Positions 11,486 to 58,000 of a stretch of DNA of 64,000 bases are shown in pieces. Within the stretch, counting starts at the first letter, position 1, and each line of letters opens with the position of its first letter. The notes beneath the pieces were generated by a model. That model was not told the DNA's origin. It did no database searches and was given only the letters and a program-made list of their open reading frames with translations. The position numbers and the translations under genes were made by a program. This DNA is from Mytilus trossulus (taxonomy: Eukaryota): assembly GCF_036588685.1 (NCBI RefSeq), contig NC_086380.1:11222001-11286000 (forward strand), written 5' to 3'.

Positions 11486-14231
11486 ATGAATTATGATTCC
11501 ATTTTAGTTTTGTTGATCTTCCAAGGTACGTAGTAAATTGTTAGTTAAAACATTTTACTTTATAAACAATACATGTTATCTGCATTTTACCCCTCTGTGA
11601 AAAATTTAGCAAAGAATCTTAAAAAGTTAATGCATGTCCTTATCATGAATACAGTATTAACGGGTTCACATGTTGTGTCGGTTTGTTTTTTGGATTTAAA
11701 TTTGTTTTTGAACATCCGAAGGAAGACAACAAAGTTAACCCGAACAATGAGCGGAACATTGTTATGGGCACATATAGATCTTAGACCAATGCAGCGATAC
11801 AATTCCGCACTCGAAGGCAGTCTTGAGCTGATAAAAAAAAAACAATATTGTATACACACTAAACTTCAAGACATGCATGCAACTGAATAAACCATTTTTT
11901 TTTAATCACACAAGACTAACGAAGGCTAAAGGTGCCTGACTTGGGACATGCGCAAACATGCAGCTGGTTAACATGGTTTGTGAGTTACCCACCTTCCCTA
12001 TACATTTTTTTGTACCTCTAGTCAATGTGGAATAAAAAAAAAACACACAGCAAGGCGCACAGTAGAACTCCGTTAAAAAGAAGCCCGATTCCGATGCTGG
12101 AATATGTAACTAAACAAAATGACATCGATAAACATCGAGTATCAAAGGATTACTGGCAGTAACTGAACGTAAGTGGTTTATATACCCTAAATCAAGTTAT
12201 CGTTATCTTCCCAAGATTGGAGGTTGTAAAGGCAAACAGCATACACCTAAACGATCATATGGACGAACGAACGGACGGACATGCAGAAGGACGGTCAAGA
12301 ATATAAATACTCAATGTCCCCCCTTACAATAACTCGCCTGTGTCCTGCATCATTAACATGTAAATGATATAAAGACGAACACGTACTATAACTGATAACT
12401 TTTTTTCTCAGTTTTTGTATCACCTTGTAATACCAGAGCCTTGACGAGATATTATTGTGAGCTTGCAGACAGAATCAACTGCAGAGCACGTGACGAGGCT
12501 AGAACATGTGGATCGGACGGCAAAACGTACTACAACATGTACGTATTTAATAATTACGAGAAGTTTACTACAACATGTATGTATCCAAATGTAATGAGAA
12601 GCTTACTACAATAAATAGCTATAAGAAGATGTGGTATGAGTGTCAATGAGACAACTCTCCATCCAAGTCATAATTTATCCAAGTAAACCATTATATGTCA
12701 AAGTAAGGTCTTCAACACGGAGCCTTGGCTCAAACCGAACAGCAAGCTATAAAAGGCCACCAAAATTACTAGTGTAAAACCATTCAAAAGGGAACATCAA
12801 CGGTCTAATCTATATATAAAAAAAGGAACGAGAAACACCTATGAACCACATCAACAAACTACAACTACAGAACCATGAGAACATCAGTGTTCTTACCTCG
12901 GACAGGTGCTTACAATTGCATCAGGTTCAAAAGTTAAATGGTAACAGTTGGTGACGTTCTGTTGTTGTCTATTCTGTGGTCGGGTTGTTGTCTCTTTGAC
13001 ACATTCCCCATTTCCATTCTCAATTTTATACACTGAATGAATAAATTTTATATACAATTTTCTTTTAACAAAAAGGGAGAAGAAAACAAGGAGACATGAA
13101 ATCCAAAAAAGACATCATCGTGGCAAAACGAAAGATAATTACAGCCCACGAAACATAAGTTACAGTAACATTTGGCGTCTATGGTTTTTACAAGAGTTAT
13201 ATACGGTTGGTTTACAACCAATTTCAAATCTATAAACTTTTGTGTCTTTATACTTTGAAAATGTTTACATATGATTTACTTCCAGGTGTGCTTTAAATAT
13301 AGCAACTTGTGACCACCCAAGACTACATGCTGTCCACTCTGGACCATGTCCAACAAGTTCGACCATCACTGACCTACAAACAGTTCCCACACAAGATGGA
13401 TTACAAGTGGCGTATGATATCTTCTGTCTGGATTTGTTTCACCACAACTGTTTATTGGAAAGGTCGTTCCAGTTATGTGGCTCTAATAAGGCAACATACA
13501 TAAACTTGTACGTTATATTTAGGCAGCAACCATTTGATTTTCTGGGGGGGGGGGGGGATTGGGTTTTTTTCTGTGCAAACTTTTTTTTTCGCGAAGAACA
13601 ATCACTTTGTTTAGCGACAAACCGAAAACAATTTTTTTTCTTTCAATTTTAGCATTACTTATAGTGGCAGCTGAGGGTGAAACAAACATTTTTTTTTCTA
13701 AGGGTCCAAAACAAATTATTTTTTTCACCGAAACCTGGAAACAAACTTTGTTTTCCAAAACAAAAAAACATAGCCCCCCCCCCCCCCCCCCCCCCGAAAA
13801 TCAAATGGTTGCTGCCTTATATCACTATTTTACAGTTGGAAAATTGTCAGATGAAAACAAAAACATGTTTTGACATATTAAACAAAGTTATCATCGTTTA
13901 AAAAAAATTTAAATTGTGAAATTGATTAATCTTATTTGGTGTAGTAATCACCATCAAACTTTTGTACGTTAAAGTTCTTTTTTCAAATCTTCTTTAATTT
14001 ATCACATTTCGATACATCCACAGGGGTAGATTACGATTTTGCATTCGTAGTGCGTGATAAACAGTTGCGCGATCTGGTTTGCATTAAATTTTGCAGAATA
14101 CACTATAACACAAAATTTAATTCATATTCCATGCCTATCTCAAGTTTTATTGTTTCTTTTTCAGGTGTGAATTTGACAAAGCCAGATGCACCCACAGAAA
14201 CTTACACGTAGTTAAATACGGACCATGCTAA
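11486..14231 (+). CDS. Secreted two-domain Kazal-type serine protease inhibitor-like protein, 4 exons, 151 aa
   Basis: Exons 11486-11525, 12412-12538, 13286-13507, 14165-14231. MNYDSILVLLIFQVFVSPCNTRALTRYYCELADRINCRARDEARTCGSDGKTYYNMCALNIATCDHPRLHAVHSGPC...CLDLFHHNCLLERSFQLCGSNKATYINLCEFDKARCTHRNLHVVKYGPC*. CGSDGKTY-x-N-x-C motif; AATAAA at the stop. Confidence 0.92.
12623..12945 (-). mobile_element. Retroposon-like interspersed repeat, family B (end ...gagttgtctcattggcactcataccacatcttct)
   Basis: Further copies at ~16574-16760, 17556-17610, 19970-20080, 45700-45785, 45995-46130, 48690-49145; shared terminus, variable length. Confidence 0.75.
13522..13816. mobile_element. PIF/Harbinger-like (Tourist-type) MITE
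   Basis: TIRs ggcagcaaccatttgatttt / aaaatcaaatggttgctgcc with inner poly-G/poly-C; TTA on both flanks; truncated copy at ~32752-32935. Confidence 0.85.
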
Positions 14232-15194
14232 ATAAAATTTTGACACAATAAACATCTTTTTGAGTATTCATTCGTTTCATTTAACAAAAACGCATTGTTA
14301 AATCAATTGAAAATGTATCAAAAGTGGCTAAAATATTTAGAGTTAGACGGGTAAGGCAATGATGCAATATAATAGTTTCGCGAATGAGGAAAGTGCTTTA
14401 ACATATTTGTAAACAATACCATTTGGGTTTCAGTTGTGTAACCATTGGCCGATAATGATTTCAATTCGATACAGTGCGTGTTTTCTCTCTCTCTTTCTGA
14501 CTTAATGATCTATTAATTACATGGAATTGAATAGGGACATGATTAGGGAAATACTGCTGTGATGGGACAGCAACCCAAAAGATTTATGAAAAAACAGTGA
14601 AAGGCATCTAAGAGTCATCTGTATATGCATACTAATTTCATATGAATCTCCTAGTATGTTTTAAACATTTATTTCAAATGCATTGATAAGTTTCATGGGG
14701 AACATAATTGGCTTTCTTTTTTGAAAGAATTTAAACAAAGAATGTACAGAAAATACCCGCTGTATCCCTTTTGAATGTCTATAAAAATTAAAAATAAAAA
14801 AAACAACATGGTCAATTTCAGTACATAACTTGGCAGAGGAGCATAAAATTAAATTGAACTGAATCCGCATAAAAAAAAAAAAAACGTAAAAGATATATTG
14901 ATCACCATGGCAATTTATATAAGTAAATGTGTGGTTATAACAGGTTATGAACTTTCAAACAGAGTTTATATGATATCGTTTAAGAAATTCTTATATCTAT
15001 TGATCCCAATCCCGATCAAGCGGTTCCATTCCAATAACCCACTCCATGTTTTTAAAAACCTTTGTAATAACATTCTCCCGCGCTTTTTCGAACACTCTCT
15101 AAAGACTAAAAACCAGTTCGGAACTCTTTTGGACTCATCATACTTCTCGATAGGTGTAAAAGTGAAAGGAGTCTAAGGAGACCACAAGACTAAA

Positions 15195-17089
15195 ATGCCT
15201 GCTAAGAAAAGAAAGCCACAAGAAACTGCTGATAACAAAGAAACTGTTAAAACTAGTCCGGCGAAAAAATCGAAGAAAGCCACAGAAACAGACGCTATCA
15301 GTTTCAAACTCATTGTTGAATATTGGTATGAAACAGGTTTTTGTCTTTTAATTTTTGCCTTCCCAAATGAAATAAGCTACCTAAGTACAATTTTGATAAG
15401 AAACATATCCATTGTAACGATGCTTAAATTAAAGTAAATGCTAGTAAAAAGTTTAAATTTAAGGAAATGTGTTCATAGATACTAACATTAATTTGAGTTT
15501 GCATTAGATTCACCCCCCCCCCCCTTTTTTTAATTTGTTTTTCAAATGACCCTAGTTTCCTTTGTTTGACTCATATTTATGAATTGAAAGAGATAACTGG
15601 TCACTCATCTGAATTACTTGCAGTTCAAAAAAGCACATCAATATAAGGAGGTCAATAACTATCAACACCAAAATTGTAATTCTTTTTAGAAAAAAATCAA
15701 AACAATTTCACATGAATGAAGAACACATAGCCTTATTGCTGTATAAAGGATTATATATATATATATGGATTTATCATTAAGATACTAATGGTCATGTTAC
15801 TAACATTGACTAACAAAAGGAGCCTTCTTGGATCTTCTAGTTTGTAAAGTTTCAATCCTAATTCTTCTATTTTCAATTTCAGCAAATCTTGACAAGTATT
15901 CAAGCGCAGGGCTGAAACAGTAGTAGCAGACTTGCGCCAGACCTTTGGTGAGGTGGAAGTGGAGTTCAATCCTTCCAAACCTCGCCGTGGAAGTTTTGAG
16001 TTTACTCTGGTTAAGGAGGGAAAGGGTAGGTTTATTTGAGAATAACTGAGTGCCATCCGTTTTACATGTATACTAAATAGATTTATAATCCTGTCACGAA
16101 AAAGTCATGTCAATGTACATTGTATAACTTAATAAAAAATTATGAGGCTTTATTCAATAATTGGAAATAAAGATACATTAAATAAATGCAGATTTATAGT
16201 TTATTGGTAACAAAAATGTTTCCAGGTTAACGTAAATGTTCACATATTCCCACTTTCTAGGATCTTGTTGATCTGATAATTCATTTGTCCAAATATTTTT
16301 GTCACACATGAACACAATGACTTCCTATTTGGTCTGTGTTATAAGGTGATATTCTTGTATGTCAATACTTTAACATGATGAAATTACTCATTGTTTTATT
16401 CATACATTTGTCCAATGCCACTGGAAAGAATTACTTTGTATTTGGTGTACAGCCTCAAAAGTGATGACAGATAAATTACAGGACAAACACTCCTTTCAAT
16501 ATGAACAATTATACAGTATATATATGTTGCATCCTTGTAAAAACACCAATTTTATAGTAATTTATAGATATAGGAAGATGTGGTGTGAGTTCCAATGAGA
16601 CAACTCTCCATCCAAATAACAATTTATAAAAGTAAACCTGTTATAGGTCAATGTCAGCCTTCAACACGAAGCCTTGGCTCACACCGAACAACAAGCTATA
16701 AAGGGCCCAAAAATTACAAGTGTAAAACCAATCAATTTCAAACAGGAAAGCTAATGATCTTATGTTAACAGTATGTCATGTAAAGCAACATTGCTTCAAA
16801 ATGAAAATGTTTTCTTCATAAAGTTGAAATGAATGTGTTTTTTTCATTTTGCAATAAAATAATGCTATTGCACTGATATAGCCTAGGTGTCAGAATTTTG
16901 TGCAATATTTTTCGACGATATGAATTATAATGTATCCCAACAGAAACATCCTCATTACATTGTTTTTATTATAATTTTTGTTTTACAGCAACCTTGATAT
17001 GGACAGGGGTAAAGAAAGGACCACCTAGGAAGAATAAATTCCCAGAAACACCAGATCTAATTATTGAGGAAATCAAAAAGAATCTATAA
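15195..17089 (+). CDS. SELENOH: Selenoprotein H (Rdx family, CxxU), 3 exons, 124 aa
   Basis: Exons 15195-15325, 15883-16025, 16989-17089. MPAKKRKPQE...LIVEYCKSUQVFKRRAETVVADLRQTFGEVEVEFNPSKPRRGSFEFTLVKEGKATLIWTGVKKGPPRKNKFPETPDLIIEEIKKNL*. In-frame TGA at 15890-15892; SelH motifs NPxKPRRGSFE and WTGxKKGPPRKxKFPE; basic N-terminal NLS. Confidence 0.95.
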
Positions 17090-17187
17090 GTTGTGAAAAT
17101 TGTATATAGAAAGAAGAATAATGACATTGCAAGGATTCTAGACGCAATATCTCACCAGCTATTTCAACTTGATTGATGTTTTTGGTA

Positions 17188-21364: not shown

Positions 21365-21379
21365 TTCTAAGCCAAGTCA

Positions 21380-24300
21380 TTATCGTGCTAATTCTGTTGA
21401 CTGAGGAGGTTGATCTACCCGGTATACGTAGTCTGCTAGTATAAAATATCCACGGTATTCTACTTCATTTGGTGTTGTGTCATTATGGTAATGTCCACCC
21501 TGACCATGTTCACTATAACAATGGAAATGTTCAACTCGTAAATCCATACCCTGAAACAAGAAATTACAAGAATGTTACAAGTCACTTTAGTATGATTTAC
21601 ACATCAAGTGTTAATGTTCCAGTTCAAATTTCTTTTTCAAAAATACATATCAAAGTCACAATGACATAAATTTAACAAACTACAGTACATCCTAAATGAG
21701 AAAGCATTTGCATAAGTTAAATCAATCAAAGACATGTGAGCACTGAGGGGGACACATTGCATCCATTTTGAATTGTTAACTGCATTGTTTTAAGTGCTAA
21801 TAATTGTGAGGCTACAATTAGTTTTAAAGGTTAAAGTCTTTTAATAAAAGAACTTAAAACTTTTATGGTTCTGGAAAAATTCTAAATTCATCAGGCCACA
21901 ATTAAAAGAATGTATGTTTCCCCAAACCCCTACCCACATTTTTGTAGGTGGGTAGGTAGGTAGGTTTTTTTTTTTTTTTTTATATCTTGATATTTTTTTT
22001 TATATCCAACAGAGCAAAACAAATCGATTATGTGTATGTCTGGCATATATAGCCATCTGTAGCAACTTAAATGTACGTGTTAAATTGTCTAAATGTTTGT
22101 AGCTCTCTGTGTCAGGTGTCAACTTGACATAAATTTTATTTGATTTTATTTGGATTTGTATCTCAGAATTGTTCATGACTGTGATTTTTTTCCCTCTTTG
22201 ACAGTGAGTCTGACTACTAAGTAGCAAACTGTTTTAAATATATATATGCATGTACTGTAGTTGTTCAACCTGAAGAATGTTCCATCAAACAATTTACCCT
22301 CTGACAGCTCAGGACTCAGATTTTGCTTCTGACATTGAGGAAATCACCAATATTAATTAATAAATAATAAAAATCAAATTTTCTTGCTTTCCTCTGAATT
22401 TCTTATTGTGACATCTAAAACAACGACAACCATGCCCAATGTCTTTACATAGAAAGAAAACATCTTTTTGGAGATCATTGGAAAAGATGCATATTGTCTA
22501 CATTTGAGAAACAGATTCCAGTGTTCTCCCCAGGATTTTTGGATAGCGCTGTGGTAAGCACGTGATTTTCCACAATTCTCAGTAACTTTGTTGCGTCGCG
22601 CGGTTGGTTTGTTATTGATTTTTAGAGGTTGTGTTTGATAATTCTATAAACAATACACCTTATCGCTATTCCCGGCTGACCCTGTCGCTTGAACTTTTGA
22701 AGCATACAACAATTACTTTTTCATTGTGGCGTCAGCTATTTTGTTTTATGATGTCATAATTTTACAGGAAACTGTGTGATATCCAGTAATGGTGGACAAA
22801 TAGCGATAAGGTGTATTGAATACGTGCCACCAGATAAGTTCTTCAATCTTCAATCTTTGTCGTGATGACAGAGTAATCTCTCTTGTAAAATAATTATCAC
22901 AAATGTAGTTTCTCCTTTGTACTTATATATTGTAGGTGGCACTTTAAAAATATTATAGAATTATTGTATGAAGTGAAATAAATTTAAAAAATGGTTTATT
23001 AGGTTATTGAAATGGCATGAAAAATTAAAAATATAAAAAAATTTAAAGAAATTTGTATCAAATTATCCACTAAAACGGTTTGTTTCCTCTATGTACTCCG
23101 CTAATAGTTGATTGATATTTTCTGCATTTGGCAAATTGATTGTTAATAAATTATCTAGATCTGTTGGAATTTGTCCTGTTATGAAGTATATTTGATGAAA
23201 TAATTTGTCTCTTTCATCTGAATACAGGTCACATTCAAAAAGGTAGTGTTGTACATTTTCTTTTTGTTAATTTCAAGATTTGACAATACTTCTTTTAGGT
23301 CTTTCCCTCCCAAATTATCTCCCTTACAGGCTGACACAACTTCCTGTTTACATTTGTGGCCTTTTTAGCATTAAATACTATTCCTAATCCAAGCCATCCT
23401 CTGTTTACATTAAATTTAAAGCAATATTTAAACAATTTATATTGATGATTGGTTGACAAATATCGATATTTCATATATATCTACACAAAATTTTCGTTTT
23501 GTCTTATTCCCTTATCCATTTGAAAAAGAGCCACGGATGGACAAGTAATCGTAATATACGGGCTTATAATGAATCCCTTGATAACAGGGTTGCCTCCTTC
23601 AAACAATGCAGGTTTGACAGTTCGGTAGTAAATGCGAAAAAGTAATGATATAGTCATAGATGGTTCAATCAATGGTCGAGACCACGTTGTCAGAGAAGGG
23701 GGTAACACTTCCCTTATATTTTTTAGAAATGAACTTTTCAGCACCTGAGACATGCATTAAATGTCTCTGTCCATTCCTTTCTTAAGTTTCGGTATCTTTT
23801 AAAAGCGAAAAATTGGGAGGAAGGAAATGTTAATTTGGCAGAAAAAGTTTTGCAAATGGCGCCATTTTGATCATTTATTGAACTGGTTCCTACGATATTT
23901 GACATCGTTGGGCGAATTAACGATCTCTCGGATAAATAAACCAGTCGATCACGTGATCGGAATGTGTACAAAATAATACAGGATGTTTGAAATTCAAAAA
24001 CAATACCGCTGATTTTTGGTCACCATAAAATGATCATCGGCACCGGAAACAACCCCGAAAAATTTCCAGAAATAAAAAAAAAATGTTGCAAAAAAACGGA
24101 ATAAAAACTTTTGAGTCGGCGGGATTTCTCTGAGTCGGTCGGGCGAGGGGAAACAAACCATATTTTTATTTTGGCCTCATTGAATCATTGTAAGTTAATA
24201 GAACACAACTATGATTTTAGTGATATTTTGTAAATTCGTGAAGATCAAGTTCCAGCACTGTTTATTTTTTCATCACTTAATAGATCATGTGATAATGATT

Positions 24301-27300
24301 CTCTTAAATTATTGCTGTGACTAGGATGATAAATACTTACTGGGTCATGTGACACAAGTTCTCCAAGACAAACTAATGGACTGTCCATTTCATAAAACTT
24401 CAGCCATTTACCAACTTGCTCTTGAGTAGTCAGTGGTGTTTTAGAAAAATCAGGCTGAAAAAAACCAAAAAGGATTCAATTTATTGAATAGTACATGAGC
24501 CAAACAGATATGATTTACAAATCCTAAGATGAAAAAAGGCCTTTTAAGGTGTCAGGAGGAAATTCAAAATTGTAGTAAAGTAGGTCTCAATGTTTAAAGA
24601 ATACTGTGGATTCATTATTATTCGTTTGATATCAATTTTTGTGAATTTCATGGGTAAAGATGAACCATGAATTTAAATGTAAAACAAAATACAAATGGTC
24701 CATAGGCTTGTATGCAGACTTTGACATAAAATATTCAAGAAGTTGCAATGTTTACTGAATCCATGAAAAAAATGAATCCACAGTAAATGGGGAAAAATTA
24801 TGCCCCTCCTTGCATATACATTAGAGTTACAAAGGGACATAACTAGAGAACTGTGATGCCACTGAAACTCAAACTTGATCTGTGTTTTATAGTAATGAGT
24901 ATTGTGTATAAGTTTCATAACATTTGGTTGGGGGCAAACTTAATTTACAGAATGAAGGCACTGATTTTTTTTTGCTAATTTGTAAAGGTCCATAACCCAA
25001 AACATGCAAAGCTTATATATACAGAAAACTTGGACAGAGATTGAAAAAAGTGCATAATTCTATATACAAATACCATAATATGGAGGTTAGCTTTCCCCTT
25101 CTCCACCAGAAAGACGCCCCCTAGTGCCACAGGTTTGGTTCCATAATAACTGCCCAGGACCTTTCTAATACATGACATAAAGTTTTCTTCTCCAGTTCTC
25201 TTACTAGCCTTTACTTCTATCACCTAAAAAGAAACACAATCATGTCAGGTAAAACATGTTTATGAATGACAACAGTGTAAGGAACATAGTTTTATGGATA
25301 ATTGGCTGACATCTGATCTATACGTTTAAATTATTTCAGCCTATCACAATTAGTTCTACCGGTAATTCAAAATTGACCTGTTTTGTTTTTTAGCCATTAT
25401 TTTGTCATTCTCTTCAACATATGAGTTTTGATTTTCTTGTCTGTATTATCTTCATCTTTTCTTTTCAAGTCTATTTGCATTGCTGTGCATTGGCCTACAA
25501 CAAATGATTTATTAACTGTTATAAATTTATATTGCAGCAAAGAACAATTAATATGAACTGTTTCTGTGTTTATATCATGAATTATTCATGAAATAGTTTT
25601 GATTGGTGGTCAACTTTATTTTAGTCACCACACTAGCTTCAATAGACGACACCAAATACTATCTTGTATATATTTATGTGTATTGTATGACTTATGAAAC
25701 CACTACAAACCTTTCCTGGGTTACCATCACAACATAAAAAATTTCCCATCAAAGAAAATTCATTTTTGGTCAGTGTCTCTTGGATACACCCTCCATCCTT
25801 TCAAAGAAAAAAAAATAATAAAAAAAATATTTTAAGGTTATTGACAAAACATACAACACAAACATGGACCAATAATGATACTGCTTATTTTTTTCTTTTT
25901 CTTTTTCTGTTAGTTTACCAAAATGAACAGTTTTTTGGTTTGCTGGTTTCAATTTCTAAGTTTACCCCTGGAATTCAATTCAATGATATGACAACAACCA
26001 TATACTGTTATCTTTTTGGTTTTATTAAAAATCTGCTGCTTAAAATATAAAGACAGGAGTATAGGGTGTTACTTTAAATTCAGAAATTATTGCATGCCTT
26101 ATTATTGCGATTTCATCATTTGAGACTAAAATGTTATTTTAATTTTTGCGATGTTGAGAAAAATCCTCTATAATTCATCGTGAATTTTATTTTATATTAT
26201 TGCATTTTTAACCTTGTCACAGTTTTTGCAATAATAAAAACATTGCAATAATTTCCAATCTAATAAAAAAAAAATCCTTTAATTGCTCCTGTTCTGATAT
26301 GTCGCGCATCAAGGCTTGATGCACGACATATCAGAACAGGAGCAATTAAAGAATTTAATTTTAATTAGATTGAATAATTTCTGAATTTACAGCACATTTC
26401 AGATTTTCTAATCATACCTCTGTGCTAACTTTGGCAATGTGTGAATTCATAACAGCAACATTTCCAGACTTGTCCAACTTTACATCATTAATTAGCTAAA
26501 AATATAATTTTATGTTTTAAAACAGGCGTACATTTGATTGAATGATTGTTGGAGTTGGTATATCTTTGCTATTACTTGACTCATCTTCGTGGCTTAGTAA
26601 TAGAACTTGCCATTGGGAATTTTTTGTTGGCATTTTTACTTCTTCTAAATTATGTTGTAGTATCAAAAACATAGTCATGCCATTAATTATTATAATATTT
26701 TTTAAACTTGAGTTTTTCTTTAAAAACATTAATCAATTTCAAAAGAAAATCTATAAAGTAAAGTCATGTATACAAAATGATAATGAAACAAAGAGTAAAA
26801 AAGGTTATCTACAAATCATTTAATTATTATTTGTTGTTTCCTACTTAAATGTGTCCATCATCCAAGCATATTTTTTTACAATGAAATTTTTAACATTACA
26901 ACTATATTTAATGGGGGTAGGTCCAGTGTTGAATGATGATCTTGAACTTTGTGTGAAACAAAAAACTACAAAAAGTTGAAAATTAAAATCATAATACAAG
27001 AGTTGAAGATCTGATTACTGAGTACACCATAAGGATCAAAACTAAAGCTAAACTTTCCTACTCACCTCACAACAACATCCAATATGTCTATGAGGCCCTG
27101 CTCCTGCTCCAATCATAAATGCTCCAGGTAAATCTACCAACTCAGAAATCTGAGTAAATGTATAGACCTATAAACATAAACAGTTCAGAATTCAGATTAT
27201 TCTACAAACTCAGTAATCTGAGTAAATGTATAGACCTATAAACATAAACAGTTCAGAATTCAGATTATTCTACAAACTCAGTAATCTGAGTAAATGTATA

Positions 27301-40323: not shown

Positions 40324-40403
40324 AGAACCGTGGTGAAGTGGTTATAGTGCATCGGACTACTAAACACAAAGATTCCTGGATCGATTCCCATTCCGGAACC
40401 AAA
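40324..40403 (+). mobile_element. Degenerate tRNA-derived SINE head
   Basis: A-box-like gtggtgaagtggtt and B-box-like ggatcgattccc; no proper cloverleaf. Confidence 0.45.
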
Positions 40404-43082: not shown

Positions 43083-46000
43083 TTAATTAAGAAGACTTAT
43101 TAAGGCATCAAAAAACTTGCTTCTGTCTTCTGTTTTCATTTCCATAACTGAAACAAAAATAACAAACTATAAATAATTGTTAAACAACCCTAAAAAACAT
43201 AAAAATGTATGTATACAGACAACTATATATAATTCTTTTATATCTGATACAGTCCCTTTAGACTATCATTGTAGAAACCTTAAAACAGAATAGTTATAAG
43301 GTAAGACCCAGATAACTGAAGCTGTAAACTAACTTTTTTCTTCTGAGTTAATTGCATTTTTTTCAGAAAAATGAACATGGACATATGACTTTGATTGTAT
43401 CAATACAATGAAGTTAAAATATCAGAATAAATTTTGACAGAAGTCACAGGCTTGACAAAAACTGCCATTAAAGTTTTAAAAACATACTACTTACTGTAAC
43501 TGTCAAAACTGTCATGCAAAGTTCTAGAATTGGTACTAACAGCTGCCTGCTCAAATGCTTTACCAAAGAAACTGGAAAAAAATTATTATGGCATTCATTT
43601 TAAAATCAACAACTTTCCCCTCATGCTTACCAGTTTTGCTTTTTAAAATTCTATTCATTAAGCAGAATACGCAAAAACATGGGAAAACATGAGTTATAGT
43701 TGTCTGAATGTTTTGGCTATGATAACTTCATCTGCGCTGATAATTTTTACATTTGGAATCTCTACCTTTCTAACATTGTTTTCAACAATGCTAGTAATTG
43801 GAAAGATTGTCGTTTAAGGTGGTACTTAACACTACAGGGAGATAACTCTGTAAAATCAGCTAAACATTTAAATTACGTTGCATTGTTAAGCTTCTCAATG
43901 ATCAAAATAAGTGTTTGTCAAACTACTTTGTAACCAGTGTAATTTTTCTAATAAAACGGTTGGTTCATATTTTTTGAACATTTTATATTTTTATCAAAGG
44001 ATCAAATTGAATTCTTCGTCAAAGTTTTATGAATATTAAACGAGCCAAATTAATTTTAGTCAAGGTGTTTGGTACCACCTTAAGGGCAATAACTCAGATT
44101 CAACAAACAATTCCGGCATCATCGACTTATTTGAAGATCCTGTCTGGTGCATCATTTTTACAATTTAAAGACTATCTATCATAGTTCAAAATAATAGGCC
44201 ATAACACAAAAACAATGGTAAAACTGTTGTTTTTTTTAGTTTTTAAGACAATAGGATAAACTGAAAATAATATGTAAATGCTCAACATTATTAAAGGGCA
44301 GTAATTCCAAAAAGGGCTGGCTGATGATCTTGAAATTGTATAAATCATTTTTGCTGTGTAAAGTTTCTATATATCCATTAAAGTTTTGATGGTAATATTC
44401 ATTTTTTAAGGGCAACAACTCCTGTAAGAAGTTGTATGCCAATTTTTATGACAAAAGACAAAAGGTAAATTTCAACATCTGAACATTTCTGATTTTGTCA
44501 TATATTCTTTATCTATAGAGTGTGGTGCTCATTTTCGCCATAACTTTCCATGTTTTCTACAGGTTATGTTCAGGTTTATATGTTTTTGAAGTATACTAAT
44601 ATTTCTATATGAAGATAACTTCAAATGCAAAACATTCATAAGCTTGAAAACATGTTTGTTTGAAAATAATCATCTGTAAAGTTCGATTAAAGAGTGCTTG
44701 AAATTTCCTGAAGTTTTGTCAATGGGGGGCACATATTCGCCGTTTTTACACATCTATTTAAAACCAAATAAATGCAGCTTTTTATAACATTTATCAAATA
44801 AATTTCATTATAGATGAACAGCAGACATTTCAAAGGTGTAAAAAAAAGAAATTTAGGCCAATCAGTCAAAAAATTACTAAGAAAAAAATCTTTGAAAATC
44901 CTCTTTTTCATTCAGGAAATTGACCGAAAATTGATGTCCGTTTTTCGATCTTTTGCAGTTAGTGCCGTAATTTTGTTTAAGTTTAAAAAATAATCATATT
45001 TGTTATAAAATTATAATTTATCGGCATATTTTCTTCCATTTCAGCCATCCTTTGAAGTGTTTATACCCCAAAATCATAAAACAGCAAAATTGTGTCCCTG
45101 GCAAATATGGGCCTCCCACTCTAGCATTTTCAAGAACATGGACAAAACTTGCATTTCACCCCTATGTTCCATTTTAGCCATGTTGGTTGGCATGGGGAAT
45201 CATCACATATATTTTTTTTATACTACGATTGTGACCATTTTAGTTCCAATTGGCCAGGTAGTTCTAGATTTCAAGATTTTTGTTAAAGTTTAGACCAAGG
45301 CTGTCAAGAGATGAGAATTGGTCACTTGACCATACCCTTTTGGGTATTGTGCTAAAAAACACACAAAAAAACCCCAAACTTTTCTATAGTTTCAAACAAT
45401 TGGGATGTAACACTGCATTAAAATAACAAAATACATATCAAGGTTCTTAATTGCATGAATACATATCTTACTTCTTCCTTTCTTCATCCAGCTGAAGTGG
45501 AGGGATGCCTATAACTAGAGTTGTTCCCTGTTCTCCGTCTAAAGGAGCACCTAAAACCAGTGGAAGACTTCTAGCTCTCTTGTTACGACTCTGAAAAGAA
45601 AGGATAATTATGTACTGTGCAATTTTCAATATAAACATTTCAGAAACAATATAGACACGGAATATGCAGTTTAAGTATTGATGGTTGTGGAAGGTAGTAC
45701 AGTGACCTGTAGTTGTTACAACTTCTATGGCATTTGGTCTTTAGTGGAGAGTTGTCACATTTACAATCATACCACATCTTATTCTCATATTTATGGTAGA
45801 TACTTACAACAGAACAGTGAGCTTCTAATGTAAACCTGGCTAATCTCATCAAACATTGTGGTTTGGCAAAGAACTTGACATCCATTGTGCCCTGAAAAAA
45901 TAATAAAAGTTGATAGCTTGTGGTAGGAACATTTTCAACTGAATCCATTTCTATTGAGGAAAATGCATCATATTCTACAAGTTTATGTTTTTCAGGGCCT

Positions 46001-49000
46001 TTAATAGCTGACTAGTCAGTATTGGCTTTGCTCATTGATGAAGGTCACATGTTGACCTATAGTTAATTTCTGGGTCATTTGGTCTCTTATGGAGAGTTGT
46101 CTTGTTGGCAATCATACCACATCTTTTCTATATTATAATTATTCACAATATTGTAAGAACACTTCAGATTTCCTTGACAACCACACGACTGCATCATTCT
46201 CTTCTGCTAAAAAAATCCCATTTCTTTACTTTGCAATGTGTAATATGGTACTTGCCATAAAGACAAATCCCTCTATTGTTTATGTTTACATATTGTTTTA
46301 GGCCGTCAACTGTTTAAAATGTTGCAGCTTCCAGGTTCTATTGTTAAATTTGAATTCATGCAATACTCTGCTGCAGACTAATAGAAACTGTTCCATCAGA
46401 CAGACAAAAAGTTTCTTGTTGACAAAATATTTTATGAGTATGACTAATTACCTCTTGTATAAAAGCATACAAGAATGGCCCAGCTGATATAACCTGATGC
46501 ATGTCAAGAAATGTCTGAACCTGGGTCACTATGGCTTGTGTCTGTTTCTTGGCTAATTCTACTGCCTTCTCTAGAGAAGCTACATTTACCCTGGAAACAG
46601 ATAGAACATAATTAACATTGATAAACAAGGACTCTGAAAGAAGAAAAATCATAGTATTACCCTTGATACAAAGATACAATATGTTTTTTTACAATAATTA
46701 CACCTGATATAAGAATGCCAGCTTTTGATTGGCTGATAGCCAGTGTAATTTTCGCATATTCTAACATTTTTTCCTCATTTCAAATGAATCTGCTTTTTTT
46801 TCACCACTGCCGGTGAATATGCCTCAAATACCATTGTATTTGCCATTTTGGATATTCCTTTTTTACCCTCCCGAGCATCTTCCCGTCTTTTTTCTCAGAT
46901 ATGACGTTTCATAAAGACAGCGCGAACATGTATACGTAGCTGTAAAGTTCCTGCGGTATATTTTATGACAGTACTTGTCCTCAAATAAATATTTCCTTTT
47001 CCTTGTACAGAGAGTTTGAATTAAAATTTATTCGGTGTAATTAAACAGATATATCATGTTATGGAGGGGGTATTTGCAAAAAATACAAGTCTTGGGACAA
47101 AATTTCCCTTGCCTGGCGGCTTGGGAAATTTAAGTCTCTCGACTTGTATTTTTCGCAAATACCCCTCTATAACATGATATATCTGTTCAGAATGTGTCCC
47201 AAGTACATGTATGCCCCATCCACACTATAATTTTCAGTGTTCAATGGACTGTGAAAACGGGGAAAAATCTCTAATTTGGCATTAAAATTAGAAAGATCCT
47301 GTCATAGGGATAAAATTGAGAATGGAAATGGGGAATGTGTCAAAGAGACAACAACCCGACCAAATAAAAAACAACAGCAGAAGGTCACCAACAGGTCTTC
47401 AATGTAGCGAGAAATTCCCGCACCCGGAGTCGTCCTTCAGCTGGCCCCTAAACAAATATATACTAGTTCAGTGATAATGAACGCCATACTAATTTCCAAA
47501 TTGTACACAAGAAACTAATATAAAAATAATACAAGACTAACAAAGGCCAGAGGCTCCTGACTTGGGACAGGCGCAAAAATGCGGCGGGGTTAAACATGTT
47601 TGTGAGATCTCAACCCTCCCCCTATACCTCTAACCAATGTAGAAAAATAAAAGCATAACAATACGCACATTAAAATTCAGTTCAAGAGAAGTCCGAGTCT
47701 GATGTCAAAAGATGTAACAAAAGAAAATAAACAAAATGACAATAATACGTAAATAACAACAGACTACTAGCAGTTAACTGACATGCCAGCTCCATACTTC
47801 AATTAAACTGACTGAAAGATTATGATTTCATAGGGATTTCATAGGGATTTCATAGGGAACATGTTTACTACGTTTCAAGTTGATTGGACTTCAACTTCAT
47901 CAAAAACTACCTAGACTAAAAACTTTATCGTGAACTTCGCACTATCATTATCTTTGTTCAGTGGAATTTGAAAATGGGATAAAATGTCTAATTTGCCATT
48001 AAAAATAAAAAGATCATATCATAGGGAACATGTTTACTAAGTTTCAAGTTAATTGGACTTCAACTTCATCAAAAACTACCTCGACCAAAAATTTTAACCT
48101 GAAGCGGGAGGAACGAACGGTCGGACAAACAGACAAATGAATGAGCAGACGGACGCACAGACATGAAAACATAATGCACATAAATGGGGCATAAAAATGA
48201 TTTGTTTTATGTACTTAACATTTATGTAACAATTTAACATGGAGAAATTTCTTAATACAGTCTTAACACACCTATCTCATTTGCAAGATTAATATGGAAT
48301 CAGTAATAGCTACGTCATTACCTTTGTAAAATATCTAATGCACTCAAAAAGTTATCCGTAGCACTTTTATTCTTATCCTGAAACATACAAGACATTAGTT
48401 AAAAAACATTTTATTAGCGATTTCTTTACGCCACCAAGTCAACAACAAGCTAAAACACAAACATTAAATTAAACATAAAGAAAAAAAAAATACAAGCAAA
48501 CATTTCTTTAGTAGATCATTTCAAATAAATAGAAGAAATCATTAACAAATATATAAGTTTTAATTTGCATCTTGTTCATTCAAAAATTGACAATAAAACA
48601 GTTTTCAATGTCTTAGTTCATACCCATTCTCTTTTTATTGCTGCGGCAGCTATCTGCTTAATACTAGACTTTTAAAGCCTGCCAATTGATATTTTATTGT
48701 GTGTTTTTCTATGTTGTGATGTTATGCTATTGTTTCAGAAAAAGGGAGAAGGTTTGGTCCCGCTGCAAATGTTTGCACCTGTCCTAAGTCAGGAATCTGA
48801 TGTACAGTGGTTGTTGTTTGTTTATGTAATATATACGTGTTTCTCGTTTTTTTATATAGATTAGACCGTTGGTTTTCGTGTTTGAATGGTTTTACACTAG
48901 TAATTTTGGGGACCTTTATAGCTTGTTCATTTGAATATGTAATTTATACGTGTTTCTCGTTTCTCGTTTTTTTATATAGATTAGACCATTGGTTTTCCCG

Positions 49001-52000
49001 TTTGAATGGTTTTACACTAGTAATTTTGGGGACCTTTATAGCTTGTTGTTGAAGGCCGTTTATTGACCTATAATGGTTTACTTTTTAAAATTGTTATTTG
49101 GATGGAGAGTTGTCTCATTGGCACTCGCACCACATCTTTCTATATCTATTTTAAAGGTAAACTTAGCATTCATATTTTCCTGAGACTTGCTTTTCTCATC
49201 TTAGAGCCTGATACAAAGCAGGGCTTCCAAAACGGTCATATATTCTGGACATTTGTGTAATGTCCTGTAAAAGTCCGGCTGGGCAAAGCATGAAACGGTC
49301 ATATACTTTTTAGTTTTCAAGGTTTTTTTTGTCATTTTAACATAATTCACGATCTTTTTGACCCAACCTTTTGCCTTTTAACATCAACACATTTTGCTGT
49401 CATCAAAGTGGCATGATGATTAATGACTATCAAAACAACCCCTACTTCAAAATACTTTCTAATTTTAATCAAGGCTAATTAGTAGTTAAACAGCTGAAAT
49501 CTACCTGTTTAGGTGACAGGTGAACTATTTCCAGTTCCGGACATCGTATAAATTGATCGGGCTATTCACAATTATTTTCTTACAATTCAGGGGTTTGTAT
49601 TTAATTGATTTAGTCCAAAAGATTAAAATTATAAGAAATTAGTTTATCAACATGATTTGATGAAAAATTAAAAAAGGTTTTAAATGAAAAATTGTCATTA
49701 CTACGTTGTATGAACTAGAACACGTGTGCGCATGTGCACAGGTGAGAAATTTAATTATGCATCCTAAATTTCTTCAAAAATGCTAAAATTATCATTGATA
49801 CCAGTATCTAATGTTCATTTCAAGTATTTTGTTGAAGAAATAGCGTGGAAAGAGCTTCTTCACTCAGTCATGCTTTGTAAAACGTACACGGAATATACAT
49901 ATCTGTTTATGGTCCAGGTTTTACCAGTCAAGTCAACATCTGGTTAGAAAAATGTGATTTTCAAAACGAAACTTGAAAGTAAAGTTTTTGACAATGTCAT
50001 TTTGCACAAATAAAGAGTCTTAAGGCAGATATGATCACGCTGATGTGCACATTTTAAATGATGCACTGCCAATTTAACAGTTTACATTCGAACATCAAAT
50101 TCATATCAAAGAAAAGTTTAAAATCGTTTTTTTTTTTAATGTAATGTCAATCATTGGAATGGCATTCTGATTTATACCATAATTGCCTTTTGTGACTAAG
50201 TCTTAAGGGATTAAATCAGGATCAGAAATAAAATGTCCGGCTGGCTCAAATATTTTTTGGAAGCCTTAATACAAAGTATTGGCTATTCCTTAAATTCATA
50301 TTTTAACCTCTACAAGTACAATGTTTCTAGATTTATATAATGAGAGGTTATGTTGCTACTTCATTAACATTCAACCAAAATCTTCTCTTAAAAATTTACA
50401 TACAGAATTTTTACCTTTATCAGAGAAAGTCTTACAATTGTACCACATATGATAAATTCCGTGATTCAAACTTCAGAAGTATACTTACTATATTTTCTAG
50501 TGTAGCAACACACGCCAACACATAGTCAGCTGCACATAATTTATTTTTATAACCATACTGGGCTGAAAATGATGGTATCACAACATCCTGGTTAGTTAAA
50601 CTAAAAAATAAATAGAAAGTCTATAAAGATCCTGAAAACAATGTACCAATTCAAATACTATTTTGCAAAATGGGAATGGCATTTCATAAACAAATTGAAA
50701 TAGGACACATCAATTGAAAGTAGTTGAGCAACATGATTTTAATCATAATTGTATTTTGTTATGAGCAAATGCTGTGCCAAGTAAGATTTTTTCTAGACAG
50801 GAAATATTAAAAAAAATATATCATATGCTATGGTCAGTAATAAAAGCAACGATACTTACCAAATTTCAGTGATACTCAAAACAAATGATATTTTAAAATC
50901 AATATAGAACTATAGAAGTCAATACATTAATTCATTTTGTAAATATAGAGTTAAGATGTTTTTGTGTTTCTTTATGTTGATATGTTTTAATCAACTCTCT
51001 CTATGGGTAACAAATTGTGCTTTAGCTGATTTATACATTCAAATGCTTGTGCTCTACAAGTGCTTTTTTATGTGTTGTTTGTAATGATATCTTATGATTT
51101 TATTGGTTGCAACTGATCTGGTCTTTGTATTGAAATCTTATGATTTTAATGACTGTGCGGCTTTTTGTATGTTGCATGTGCTTTTTATTTATCAATATGT
51201 TCAGCTTGTATTGATTGTATGTCCTGTATATGTACATGTTGCAATTTAATGATTAATCCTGTTAAGTGATTATACATAAGTCGGTTTAAGAGTTATAAAG
51301 AGCACATATTCTAAGTTGATTGTGTATATGAAACCTAAATTTTAAATAAAGATTGTTCTACTTTACTAATAATTGATATCTGTCTATTTACCCATATTTT
51401 GTCATGTGATCTTGAATCATCTGTTTTATGTTATGTCGTAAAGACGATTCCATTGAGGAAAATTTCTGTTTACACTGACTCAATGGCATTCTGAAACAAA
51501 TCATGTCATAAAATGTTTACATTTCTTTTTAGTAATATGCATCTTTTCTAAAAAAAGATTGTAAAATATTAGAACACAGGGATATTCATATTGTCAGTTA
51601 GGAAGAGGGTGTACAAAAAAATGTGACTTTTACTGGAAACATCAAAAGACATTCAACAAGTTTATTTTAAGAAAAGACAAAAGAAAGCATTTATTTGAAG
51701 AAAGATTATAAAACAGATTATCTCCCCATAAGTAGAAATATGGACATGCTTATTTTTTAAAGAATTTCACCTCTTCCCGAAATAAAGATTGACCGACATA
51801 AAACTTACTCATAGTCAATCACACATAAAGGTTGTTGATTTTTTTCATGGATTTAAATATTATGGCAATTCTGACACTGATTACCAATAGGTCCAACATT
51901 TGAGAATGTAAATGATTTTCACAGGAATTAAAACTCACCCCATTTCTGCTAAAAATTCATGTAATCTTTTCTGTCCCTTTAACGTCCAAACTTTGAATTT

Positions 52001-55000
52001 ACAAGCCAAGTTAACCGAATGACATATACTGTCAAACAACGACCAATGTCGATATAATGTTAATTGTAATTCTTCATCAAACACTATTTTTAAACAGTTT
52101 ATAGATATGATATTATCTTCATCATCACCTCTGAAAAGAAAGAAAATCATTTAATATGAATTTCAGTTGATATCGTAATTAAAGAACAGAAAATTGCAAA
52201 TTAAAATATAGAATGCCATATGCTTTGCATTTACTTTACTACTGAGTATGTACCTATTACCAGGTTGTCTGTATATTGATATTATAAAATATCAGCTGGG
52301 AGTCATAATATGAAGTTTTTTTTAGTTTTAGTTCATTTATATGTTTTGGAGTTTAGTGTGATGTCCATTTTCACTGAACCAGTACACATTTTGTTTAGGA
52401 GTCAGCTGGATGCCGCCTCTGGGTGTTGGACTTTCTTAGTTTCTCCCTTTGGTCAGTTTGTTGTCTCTGTTTTGTTCACACATCACAGTCAATATACTGG
52501 TAATTCATGTGACTATCATACAAGTGAGAGGTTTAGCTAGCAAACCAGGTTTGATTCACCATTTTCAACATAAGAAAATGCCTGTACCAAGTCAGGAATA
52601 TTACAGTTGTTATCCATTGGTTTGATTTTGCCATTTGATTAGGAAATTTCTGTTTTGAATTTTCCTCACAATTCAGTATTTTTGTGTTTTTTCTTTATTG
52701 ACACATTCCCCATTTTTAGTCTAGTGAGTGCAGCCAATCAGTTCAGTTGATAGTTTACAATATAAATATGCAGACAACTAGATAGTTGATTTATCTTGTT
52801 GTATTTGTGTAATTTTTTATGATAGAAACAAGTGTTTTATTTCTTTCACCAGGCAACTGGAAGATAAGTTGATAGGTTGTGATAAAACTTATCAAGGAAG
52901 GTTCATTCATAAAGACATTGCTGGTACAAAGTATGTCCAAGTCAAAGATAACAAGGCCTTAATAAAATCCTTAGTACTTCTACTTGCTTTTTCCCTTACC
53001 AAAATCCTGTCTATTCAAAATGTTTTCTCTTTTTTTTTAAAATAACTTTTAGTCTGTTTCCTTAGCTATTTGACTTACTAGATTCTAGACTCATTGTCAA
53101 TCTAGAGTAAACATAAAATTAATGTAAACCTGTGATTATGTCTAGCAACATGTGACTCAAGAATAAACATAAATGTAAACCTGTGATTATGTCTAGCAAC
53201 ATGTGACTCTAGAGCCATTGCATCATCAATATATTTATCCCTGGGAGTTTTAAAATGTATATATTGATCTGTTACTCCTACGACAGCCAACCTGTAAAGA
53301 AACAAGTCTGAGATTTAAAATAATTTCTGATCTATACATCAAACATATTTACTCAAATAAACAATTAATTCTTGCTGGTATATGTTCAATTTTTTTAATA
53401 TATGATACCAGTATGTTTGATTTGTGTGGAAATGAATAAGAAATGTATTTCTTTCTCAAAATGCTTAAAATATATTTGTAAGCTAATAAGCAGTTTCTCA
53501 TGTTCTTAGTAACCTAATTATACATCACTGAAGAGACATATATTGTCGAAATCTAGATCTGGTGAACTAAAGAAATATTGACACCGAATGTTTGTGGTGC
53601 AACATCGTGGCCACAAGTTAAAAAAAAAAAAAAAAATTCTGTGACGTATTAAATTAATATTAAGATCCAGTTTGTTACATCTTGTGATCAATTTTATTTG
53701 GCAGTCGCCAATGGCAGTCAGCAGGGTTAAAGAACATCAGTTGTTCGACCTGTTAGTCAAATGCGTTTTGTTTAAATATACTTTTTCACTTTGTTGGTCT
53801 TTTGGAAAATGTTGTTTGTGCTGTTTTTAGACCCTTCTACAACGAAATTTGTTTGACATGCACACGTATAAAAATTGCGGTTTTTATCCAACGCAATCAT
53901 ATGTTTGAACGTAGTTTTCAATTTAGACTCGTTTATATATATATATATATATATATAAGTTTTTCTGAATTTCTATATGTCATGAAATGACTTAAGAATG
54001 AACTATCATATACCATCCATTAACAGGATTAAGCACTTTTGCTATAAAAAGCTCAGACTAAAAAAGATTTTTTTAAATAATAAAAAATCATACCATACTA
54101 AATCATTTGTATCTTTAGACATTTTCCACGCCAACTCAAACATTATTAGAGAAGCCTGTAATAAATAAGAATTTTAATTCATTAAAACAGGAAGTAAATC
54201 AAACAAATAAATGGGAAACACAGTCTGCACGATTAGCCACTAGTCCGATGTCCCAGACTAGTAAAATTTCATTCAGACTAGTAAGTTTTTGCAACAGCAA
54301 GACTTTGTTTGGACCAATAAGAAAAATGTCAGAATATTGGTTTTCGGACTGGTAGTTGAAAAAGTTTTTGGTGCAGACTGGGAACAAGTCAATGGGACAC
54401 AGATGATGACCCTGCTTGCATATCATATAAAAGAGTCATAACTGAAGAACAGTTAAAGTGATGCAACACAAATTTGTAGTTGACCTAAATTTTGTGGAAA
54501 TAAGTATTGTGCAGTAAGTAAGTTCCATAACATTTGGTTAAGGTAACTAAAGTTAGAGAATGGAAACAAAACAATTCAGCAATTTATAAAGGGACATAAC
54601 TTTAGAACAGTTAAAGTGACACCACCAAAGTTCTTACTTGATCTGTTTCGTGGTAATAAGGGCTATTCCATTTAAACATACATCAACCCCCAGGAAGGCA
54701 CTATGACAATAGGGCAGCCACCCAGAGAAGCATTTTTAAAAATTTTGAAGGATTGTCCTCATCAAAACTTTGAAAAGGGCACCCACCACTAGAAGTGGTT
54801 TCAAAATGCCTTCCTGGGGTTGATCTATGTTTAAATGGAATAGCCCTAAGCATTTCTAATAAGTTTCATGACATTTGGTTGAGGCAAGCAAAAGTAAGAG
54901 AATGGAAACCAACTTTGGGATATACAAACAAGGCTACAGCAGGGGCACTGTTAATTGAAGGAATTTTTTTTGGTTGAATATCCAATGATATATCTGCAAA

Positions 55001-58000
55001 GTTCACATTCAGCCTCATTTTAACTGGGTATTAAATATTTTTTTATATCATGTGTACATTTTCAAGACTATATTAAAGACATACGAATCTAATACTGTAT
55101 TTATGTATATTTCTAATAAAATTACCACCCATAATTTGTCAAAGTTGTTTTTAGTCAGATATGTTTGAACTTGATTTTTTTACAATACTAGTGGCCAATT
55201 TTCAACATTAAGGTAGAAGTTGAACAAAAAGAGCATTGCTGTTGAGAAAAATACCGGAGAAATCATAATTCACCATAATATCCGTGAAAAATATAATGTT
55301 CAGTAAAGCAAACACAATTTTTTTTTGCAGATTTAAATGAAGTAATAACATTCAAAATTTTCGGTAAAATTAAATTGAATTGCCACATGCTGGCGTAGAT
55401 ATGTACTTACAGAAGTGCCATATGTAGAGAACTGATTATATTCAAATAATATCTTCTGTCTGGAAAAATAAAAAATATATTACTTAAGTCAGCAACAATT
55501 CACAAATAGGTCAAGTAGAAATTTTTAAAATGAAAATACCTTATATAAAATTGTATGTTTGTTTGATGGTTTTTATGTAACTTTCTGAAAGAATACCATT
55601 TGAACGGTTATTTACATTCTAAATTTCTTTTACAAAATCCAGTGATAAAATTAAACAGTTTTGGTAAATTTGATAATACATGTATTGATCTTTCTAAAAA
55701 TAAGACTAAAGAATGGAAAATGCATAATCCTGCACTCAATTTTCAAATCTATAACTTTGAATATCCCGCAATTTTTGTTTCAATACTAGTAAATTCTAGA
55801 TTCATTTCAAGTTAATTCAAACTATTGGAAAAAACCTTTCAAGGTTTATTTATACATGAAAGTTTAACTATATGATATCAAATACCTATTCTCATCCCAG
55901 ATTCTTTTATCTCGTCTCTTTTCAATAGCTTCATCATCAAACCTTTTTCTTTTTCCTGATCTTTCTGAGGTATCACTATCATTTCCTGAATCATCGTCTG
56001 ACTGTAAATAAAATAAAAGAAAGTGTAAAAAAGTTGTTCCTACAACTTATTTCAAAGCTGTATACAAATGTTGTTCACCATTGATAGTCTTTTCTTTCAT
56101 TTGTTTCAACTGTCAGTGTGAAATAAGTTTCTAGGGGGATGGCCCTCACTCTGTATATCATTTTTTTTAATTATGTAGCCATGTTCTGCATTTTGAAAGC
56201 TATTAGAGTGGTGTTTTTCAGATACATAGGCATTAATTCATACATTTTTTACGTTGATCATTAAATTTACAGAAAAATTGAAGAAAAAGGTTGAAGTACC
56301 TAACATCTATATATCACTATTGAAATAGCTGAAGCAATACTTTTTCCTGCTTACTGCAAATGAAGTCATGTACTTGACCATGTTCTCTCAATTTTCTGAA
56401 GCAATTAACATGGCCTTTTAAAAAATGATAAGATTCTTTGTACTTCATCAAGAATTTGGTCTTTTTTTGGAGCTACTATGTCATCTTTTGGGACAATTCA
56501 AAGCCATAAATTTCTTTCCATCAGTGTATTAAGATAATAAAAATTTGTAAGGGTTCCAAAGAACCAAGTGTTTCGCCTACTTTTGCTGTTATTCACAGGC
56601 TCAACAAAAATGAGGAAAAAAAATCATAAAAATATATCTTTTGAATCTAAGAAGCTTCTGACTAAGTTTGGTAAAAATCCAGAATAGTTTATGAATCTAA
56701 TAAATGTTTTAAATCTTTAACTGCAGACTGAATGTAATTTGAACAGGAAGAAAAACTAAGTCCATTTATAAGTAAAATATGGATAAACAGGTACAAACTT
56801 TTAACAAAATTTCCTTCCAGATACTAGCTTTTGATCATAAACAAGCTTCTGTCCATGTTTGGTACAAATGCAGCATAGTTTGAGAAAGTTATTAAAATTT
56901 TACAGAGTGAATATTTATGGACACCACCTACAACGGAAAGTAGGATTGCTATGTCTTGCTTAACGAAAAAAGTCAAAGGCTTGACAAAACTGATGTGATC
57001 ACCAATGAGTCAAATATCCAACAGAGTTCAAATGACATGGATTTCAAAAATTAAAATGTTATTGCATTGCTTCAGAATTGAGCAAAAGCCATTCTAAATA
57101 GCTAAAGTCTGCAATTAAAGCCCAACAAGAGATATGCGAAAAAAATCAATTGAGAAAATTTAGAAAGTAACAAAATAATTTTACTAGTAAAAAAAATACT
57201 GATATAAACTTAAGTTATGTTGTTATATAAGTTATTTCATAAATCTGTTATAATGGATAGATTACTTGACTTTATATAACATTCTTACATCATCATCTCT
57301 GAATAAAGAATCATAATCTGGTAACTCATCAAACTCTTCTTCCTTCATTAACAGCTTGACTTGTACAGCATTAAATACATTGTGTACATCTACTGGTCTG
57401 TGGCTAAAATATATAATACAACAGTTTTATTTGAACAGCATGAAATACAATGTTTACATCTACTGGTCTATGGCTAAAATAAAATACAAGAACAGTCAAG
57501 CTCTTAATATATTTTTTTTTATAAATTTGGGTGTTTTTAAAGAAGGTATGATACGATACATATCTGATTACAACATGCACAATACAAGGATTTCTATTAG
57601 ATACATAATCAATACCCAAACTGTTTTTATTGTTTTGTTTAGCAAACATGCTGTTCCTCAAATGTAGCTAGTCAGATTTAAAATATTTTTTTAACTAATC
57701 ATGTATCAGCCAACCATTTTCATAGAGAAGTGTAATTTGAAACAAGTTTTGAAAATGATAAAACTCAGAATTTATCTAGAAGGAACCAAACCATAAAATG
57801 AATGAAATTAATTGAAAATTTGAACAAAGAACAACGTTTCAGAACTAGTTTGAAGCGCCTTTACAGGTTTTATCTTCACACTGAACACTTAACCATGTAA
57901 ACATTACAGAATTGTCCTTTGATTTCTAATGATTAGTTGACTCATTGGTAATCATGCCAAGATTTTTTCCAAATGCCACACCATATTCTCCGTTCTTCAA

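Follow-up and report, generated by a model that had tools for sequence, protein, structure and literature searches.

Tandem duplications of the mirage type at exon-intron junctions in a 64-kb window of the Mytilus trossulus genome

The window analysed here is a 64,000-nucleotide stretch of the genome of the mussel Mytilus trossulus (RefSeq assembly GCF_036588685.1, contig NC_086380.1, positions 11,222,001 to 11,286,000 of the forward strand; positions below count from its first letter). It holds seven modelled genes, some of whose exon-intron junctions carry tandem duplications of the junction itself. The models contain 38 introns, all 38 of the GT-AG type, and 76 coding junctions; the coding splice junctions of these seven genes in the 64-kb window are the denominator used throughout. 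The CDC45, C11orf54 and MIF models match RefSeq M. trossulus proteins at every residue (564/564, 314/314 and 111/111, respectively). In comparisons with Mytilus proteins, one CDC45 exon matched at 100% and the last exon of C11orf54 at 95-98%; Pfam support for the models was weak and came from single exons. We found that 6 of the 76 junctions, three donors and three acceptors in four of the seven genes, carry tandem copies, with units of 38-70 bp and 2 to 58 units per array (Table 1). An earlier note on this DNA had listed six such cases, and the genes, exon numbers and unit sizes that it gave all proved right against Tandem Repeats Finder (TRF) and the gene models.

All six arrays were detected by TRF. 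In a scan centred on junctions they scored 47-202, as compared with 21 for the next best of the 76 junctions, a score equal to the maximum among 456 shuffles. A blind ungapped scan (lags 20-200, score of at least 34), which returned no segment in four shuffled windows at this threshold, showed that the copies lie head-to-tail. The junction positions were set by identity with RefSeq proteins in five cases, and by an open frame together with a Kazal motif in the Kazal case. The window contained no distant copy of five of the six arrays, and for the sixth a single 27-nt match; in this window search, the junction arrays lack the dispersed units that characterise the cores of bivalve tandem-repeat MITEs (miniature inverted-repeat transposable elements). 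One further candidate, at the donor of CDC45 exon 17 (43458-43555, period 47), was picked up only under lenient TRF settings and was rejected, its score of 110 being below the shuffle maximum of 132; at these settings the Kazal array, at 123, also fell under that maximum and was retained by the other two scans.

Table 1. Junction arrays, an associated element and genes of the window
Feature	Position	Strand	Basis or remark
Kazal gene A exon 2 donor duplication	12528..12611	+	TRF period 38, 2.2 copies
C11orf54 exon 4 acceptor minisatellite	27133..30689	-	TRF period 61, 58 copies, 98% matches
C11orf54 exon 2 donor duplication	32096..32270	-	TRF period 67, 2.7 copies
MIF exon 2 acceptor minisatellite	36880..37784	+	TRF 37404-37784 (6.9 copies) and 36908-37153 (4.5 copies), period 55
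High-copy dispersed element splitting the MIF array	37159..37400	.	Contig loose ends and depth; right edge from sequence
CDC45 exon 9 donor duplication	53105..53213	-	TRF 53113-53213, period 51, 2.0 copies
CDC45 exon 5 acceptor duplication	57350..57489	-	TRF period 70, 2.0 copies
FABP gene, 4 exons	585..6124	+	No junction duplication; counted in denominator
Kazal-type gene B, 4 exons	6633..10856	-	No junction duplication; counted in denominator
Kazal-type gene A, 4 exons	11486..14233	+	
Rdx-family gene, 3 exons, in-frame TGA	15195..17090	+	No junction duplication; counted in denominator
C11orf54 gene, 9 exons	21380..33370	-	
MIF-like gene, 3 exons	35969..38552	+	
CDC45 gene, 18 coding exons	43083..63082	-	

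That the units always straddle the junction, as had been noted, is true of all six arrays, but the unit at the C11orf54 exon 2 donor (61-67 bp) includes only 5-6 exon nt beside about 60 intron nt. The exon and intron parts are 11 and 27 nt in the Kazal unit (real donor after 12538), 35 and 26 nt at C11orf54 exon 4 (real exon start 27167), 41 and 14 nt at MIF exon 2 (37744), 32 and 19 nt at CDC45 exon 9 (real donor below 53181), and 55 and 15 nt at CDC45 exon 5 (real exon start 57403). The extension of the units into the intron is likewise real, but it is the logical outcome of any junction-spanning duplication and thus no separate evidence. The functional copy is the 5'-most at donors and the 3'-most at acceptors, because any such tandem duplication must give that arrangement. 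The splice dinucleotide is retained in the one decoy donor of the Kazal array (at +38), in the single decoys of CDC45 exon 9 and, upstream of the real acceptor, CDC45 exon 5, in all 57 decoy acceptors of C11orf54 exon 4 and in 7 of the 10 scored MIF copies; both intronic copies at C11orf54 exon 2 have TT in place of GT.

The C11orf54 exon 4 array makes up 3522 of the 4587 bp (77%) of intron 3, showing, as the earlier note had proposed, that junction duplications can be a route to intronic satellites; their part in creating new splice sites or micro-exons is here only potential. The interior of this array is 98% uniform and its three exon-proximal units are divergent. Codon 89 (27144-27146, minus strand) encodes Ser in the functional exon and Ala in the array interior, and the same position is Ala in M. 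edulis, M. galloprovincialis, M. californianus and M. coruscus; therefore, the older codon survives in the array, whose turnover is separate from that of the exon. Each 61-bp unit contains a weak GT 30 nt past the acceptor, so that a 30-nt in-frame micro-exon is conceivable; the same weak GT inside the real exon 4 is unused in the annotated protein. An M. edulis C11orf54 model (P0034) begins in intron sequence just 5' of exon 4.

At MIF exon 2, 11 upstream copies lie in two blocks (about 36880-37153 and 37404-37743), of which the distal has 96% matches; the edge units differ from a uniform interior. The element between the blocks is marked by a very high summed depth and by a loose end at 37159 in hundreds of contigs. 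Four sequencing runs (X1, X2, X24 and X20) were compared over 35900-55850, where matching was swamped by dispersed repeats. A 381-nt contig of X2 spans 37367-37747 with 5 differences, which places the array outside this assembly as well; X1 was identical on its 8 listed pieces and, as it may be the source sample, was not counted as independent. The MIF exon 2-3 joint was GT..AG in X24 and X20, among the joints listed. In an M. edulis MIF model (P0069), exons 1 and 2 are separated by an 18-residue insert, the peptides of which occur in translations of the array; this model is predicted, its N-terminal extension is implausible, and a sister model lacks the insert. P0069 and P0034 look like predictions misled at the same junctions.

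To score splice sites, we used matrices trained on the 70 other junctions of the window. The RefSeq M. trossulus proteins of CDC45, C11orf54 and MIF use the exon-proximal site, and the Kazal decoy donor scores about as well as the real one (7.4 vs 7.1). Use of the nearest decoy would shorten the frame in four of the five arrays whose copies keep a splice dinucleotide, giving 71, 93, 62 and 122 aa as compared with the normal 151, 314 (C11orf54), 111 (MIF) and 564 (CDC45) aa. At CDC45 exon 9, use of the decoy, which lies in a stop-free stretch at +51, would yield a 581-aa open frame with 17 additional residues; the insert was absent from the seven compared of eight CDC45 cluster members, the partial P0050 being left out. 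By its sequence, this junction is the best candidate for alternative donor use. Its donor (53175-53183, minus strand) is the weakest of the 38 donors by leave-one-out score. An M. galloprovincialis CDC45 (P0048, 579 aa) differs at the N-terminus and not at exon 9. The idea that the arrays sit at weak splice sites was not supported: three of the six were among the weakest three of 38, with an overall P of 0.10 (leave-one-out).

Relatives of CDC45 were found at four loci in metagenome contigs, of which L001 is intronless and L002 duplicates L003; none was found in genome and viral contigs. The introns before exon 5 and after exon 9 have matching positions in L003, and that before exon 5 also in L004, and therefore the introns are older than the duplicated copies. 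No new intron between duplicated proto-splice sites was found, the proteins being colinear with their orthologues. L004, a CDC45 fragment of another, unrelated animal with 71% best-segment identity, has a duplication of its own at the exon 3 donor (2594-2676; 38 bp, 2.2 copies), in which GT is gone from the second copy. This case was met unsought and shows recurrence but not enrichment; an ungapped scan of L003 and L004, which missed the gapped L004 case, gave four segments at a score of at least 30, none of them at a junction.

Whether such duplications are concentrated at junctions was assessed with the blind scan, whose 16 loci reduce to 15 events once the two MIF blocks are merged, each array being collapsed to one unit. 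None of the 15 lies wholly inside coding sequence. Six cross a junction, as compared with 1.67 expected (P = 0.003; odds ratio 5.3, 95% interval 1.6-17). Among units of up to 100 bp, a size class picked after the data had been seen, the count is 6 of 8 against 0.48 expected (P = 9e-7; odds ratio 47, 8-476) and is still 5 of 7 when one junction case is dropped (P = 1.5e-5); for units above 100 bp it is 0 of 7 against 1.19 expected. When five long-period events are removed, of which four have dispersed relatives and the fifth is a block that shares its family with one of those four, the count is 6 of 10 against 0.86 expected (P = 3.5e-5; odds ratio 16, 4-77). A point-matched control, in which the same statistic was taken at 1086 non-coding points with the bodies of the junction arrays left out, showed only a 1.5-2-fold difference (P 0.07-0.2), which is explained by the long-period arrays that take up about 4% of the background. 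Within the window, the count at junctions is thus above chance by the event-based tests but not by this control. Since the statistics cover this window alone, itself selected for showing the pattern, the junction excess of short tandem duplications is suggestive and not established.

Junction-remote arrays with periods of 120-191 bp lie at 18536-19990, 34367-34690, 47847-48103, 48817-49047, 54430-54619 and 56649-56902; several of them have relatives scattered over the window and look like MITE-type elements with tandem repeats. Elements of this kind occur in bivalves, and the long-period arrays of the background resemble them (PMC3879986).

The earlier note had left open that the pattern might be undescribed, but repeats of this type are already on record, as "mirages" in amphioxus and as junction-spanning variable number tandem repeats (VNTRs) in human genes. 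Mirages are reported in amphioxus Adh3, the globins BflGb6 and BflGb9, and, as added by PMC3902484, troponin C and PGBD5; their units measure 10-160 bp, their origin mechanism is called unclear, and they are suggested to be possibly general in cephalochordates (PMC3087553, PMC3902484). Like the mussel arrays, they are built of exon edge plus intron edge, occur at 5' and 3' borders, range from a single duplicate to many copies in a size range that covers 38-70 bp, and keep AG or GT in many but not all copies; BflGb6 has a homogenised interior with edge units apart, as in the C11orf54 and MIF arrays. The mussel differs in being a bivalve, with six cases in 64 kb and one array of 58 units, and its cases are known from sequence, whereas normal splicing and length polymorphism of the amphioxus mirages were shown experimentally. 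In the human VNTRs of F7 intron 7 (37 bp), IFI6/6-16, CBS, lamin B2 and PDGF (PMC1557585), the first unit also spans the exon-intron border and repeats the donor, usually only the upstream donor is used, and the exon contributes just 4 bases to the F7 unit, much as at C11orf54 exon 2. These are donor arrays in scattered genes, whereas half of the mussel cases are acceptor arrays in which the last copy is functional. Internal tandem repeats at exon-intron borders of human segmental duplications (PMC2812944) and junction-overlapping megasatellites (bioRxiv 10.1101/2021.07.19.452908) share the tandem amplification of a junction, proposed there as a way in which new introns arise or exons become repeated; the mussel units are below 90 bp, their copies are intronic, and no new intron or repeated coding exon was seen. 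An abalone TSSK1 intron minisatellite was rejected as a parallel, as it is not reported to span a junction (PMC6905558). Our literature search, for which subscription journals were largely outside the scope, found no report of bivalve mirages and no genome-wide enrichment test among the papers listed. Taken together, the mussel arrays as repeats belong to the known mirage type, to which they add their density in a bivalve and a test within the window that hints at a preference of short units for junctions.

The breakpoints lie 5-55 nt inside the exon and at least 14 nt inside the intron. As none falls on a splice site and every unit includes intron, they argue against RNA-templated insertion (cDNA or reverse splicing). 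In-register exact matches were found at the outer edges of the Kazal array (8 nt, lag 76 = 2 x 38, chance 0.0006), the CDC45 exon 9 array (7 nt, lag 107, chance 0.001), the second copy of which has a 5-nt indel, and the CDC45 exon 5 array (5 nt, lag 141, chance 0.008), each chance figure being for one breakpoint pair, whereas 16-18 offsets were searched; none was found at the edges of the other three arrays. With breakpoints off the splice site and flanking microhomologies that are not splice signals, a mutational process focused on splice junctions, one of two causes offered beforehand, is not shown.

We prefer, at a probability of roughly 60%, the reading that the six cases are mirage-type repeats produced by ordinary slippage or unequal exchange and tolerated, with a junction excess that stems from survival and from the selection of the window. 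The first duplication would arise by slippage or unequal exchange at microhomologies of 5-8 nt, similar to the Haber and Louis model of such events between short repeats of 5-10 bp (PMC6947457). Two of the arrays have expanded to minisatellites of 58 and about 12 units, and later turnover may have homogenised the array interior, leaving the edge units apart. The copies would be neutral, in that the copy joined to the intact exon is predicted to remain the one that the spliceosome uses, and decoy use would be rare or cleared by nonsense-mediated decay; their neutrality is helped by human F7, in which identical downstream donors stay silent (PMC1557585). Copies at junctions may survive longer, as selection holds one copy, which would roughly halve the decay of similarity, and would purge deletions that extend into the constrained exon, shielding the adjoining copies. 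The selection of the window would also add to the local excess. We therefore regard survival together with window selection as the likely source of the excess, rather than a process directed by splicing. Survivorship in the form first suggested stands only in part: the proteins of the three comparable genes are colinear with use of the exon-proximal site, and tolerance explains the lack of wholly coding events among the 15, but it cannot enrich junctions over intron interiors, because duplications inside introns are equally harmless.

Several observations weigh against this reading. Microhomology was seen in only three of the six cases, with 16-18 offsets tried, and the edge matches could be what is left of another copy that has decayed. 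As many as 53 of the 57 C11orf54 exon 4 decoys score above the real acceptor, and the CDC45 exon 9 decoy donor is identical to the real one and in frame. No RNA joint at any of the six array junctions was present among the joints listed, which were swamped by repeats, and thus the neutrality of the copies, probable as it appears, rests on annotated proteins. Halved decay should give at most an about 2-fold excess, as compared with odds ratios of 47 and 5.3; the interval for short units begins at 8, and survival by itself may be too weak a cause.

This shortfall leaves room for a birth bias, tentatively, by which these would be mirages of a lineage where short duplications arise more often at exon edges; nicks, Okazaki-fragment ends and repair at the borders of exon-positioned nucleosomes are possible causes. 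The short-unit events, with 6 of 8 at junctions and 5 of 7 without one case, and the 6 of 10 events left without dispersed relatives speak for such a bias, as do the young-looking arrays (94-98% matches) among the junction cases and the unsought L004 duplication. However, the size class is post hoc, none of the seven longer events is at a junction, the point-matched control is not significant, the L003 and L004 scan had no segment at a junction, and the window was chosen out of a very large set. The last point leads to a somewhat less probable account, in which there is no true genome-wide enrichment and the most striking, gene-dense window of a repeat-rich genome was picked. The genome measures 1.2-1.4 Gb, or roughly 20,000 windows of this size, against which P = 0.003 for 15 events carries little; the control agrees with this account, and three of the seven genes have no junction array. 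On the other hand, P = 9e-7 for short units multiplied by about 20,000 windows is still about 0.02, and the background that dilutes the control consists mostly of arrays with long periods, several of which have relatives scattered through the window.

It is improbable that the copies are functional, their decoys giving alternative isoforms or tuning expression by unproductive splicing. The 581-aa frame of CDC45 exon 9 and the array-like insert of M. edulis P0069 would fit such a role, and some human junction VNTRs do use the nearest pseudo-sites (PMC1557585). The CDC45 insert is, however, absent in all seven sequences compared, P0069 is a doubtful prediction with an insert-free sister model, and the copies show decay, with GT lost in the C11orf54 exon 2 copies and AG in 3 of 10 scored MIF copies. 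An assembly artefact is very unlikely: the copy number of a 58-unit array of 98% homogeneity could be mis-estimated, but many substitutions and indels separate the copies (75-96% matches), and the MIF array is also present in a second sample and in a model from M. edulis.

The possible but doubtful generalisation is that in mussels, and perhaps widely in marine invertebrates, tandem duplications of 30-70 bp originate at a rate an order of magnitude higher across exon edges than inside introns. If so, about 1 junction in 13 would carry spare splice sites, and introns would lengthen at their ends. A birth bias, if real, would account for how mirages originate and would feed the growth and gain of introns as well as shifts of splice sites. 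Arrays such as that of C11orf54, with its 57 spare acceptors, would be natural tests of how an invertebrate spliceosome chooses the last among many better-scoring 3' sites. Junction arrays can also mislead gene prediction, as the two M. edulis models appear to illustrate, and are candidate length-polymorphic markers.

Some features lie apart from the junction arrays. A C-rich 26-bp minisatellite of 15 copies (3440-3826) begins 89 nt past the FABP exon 2 donor and does not include the junction. The Rdx-family gene (selenoprotein H-like) has an in-frame TGA (15892-15894, plus strand), which belongs to a C-x-x-TGA motif where exon 2 begins and is likely a selenocysteine codon. In Kazal-type gene B, the candidate exon 9917-10070 was ruled out by an in-frame stop, and 8762-8894 completes the gene instead. 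The two four-exon Kazal-type genes (6633-14233) are divergently oriented and have the same intron phases, and genes A and B are likely an old local duplication.

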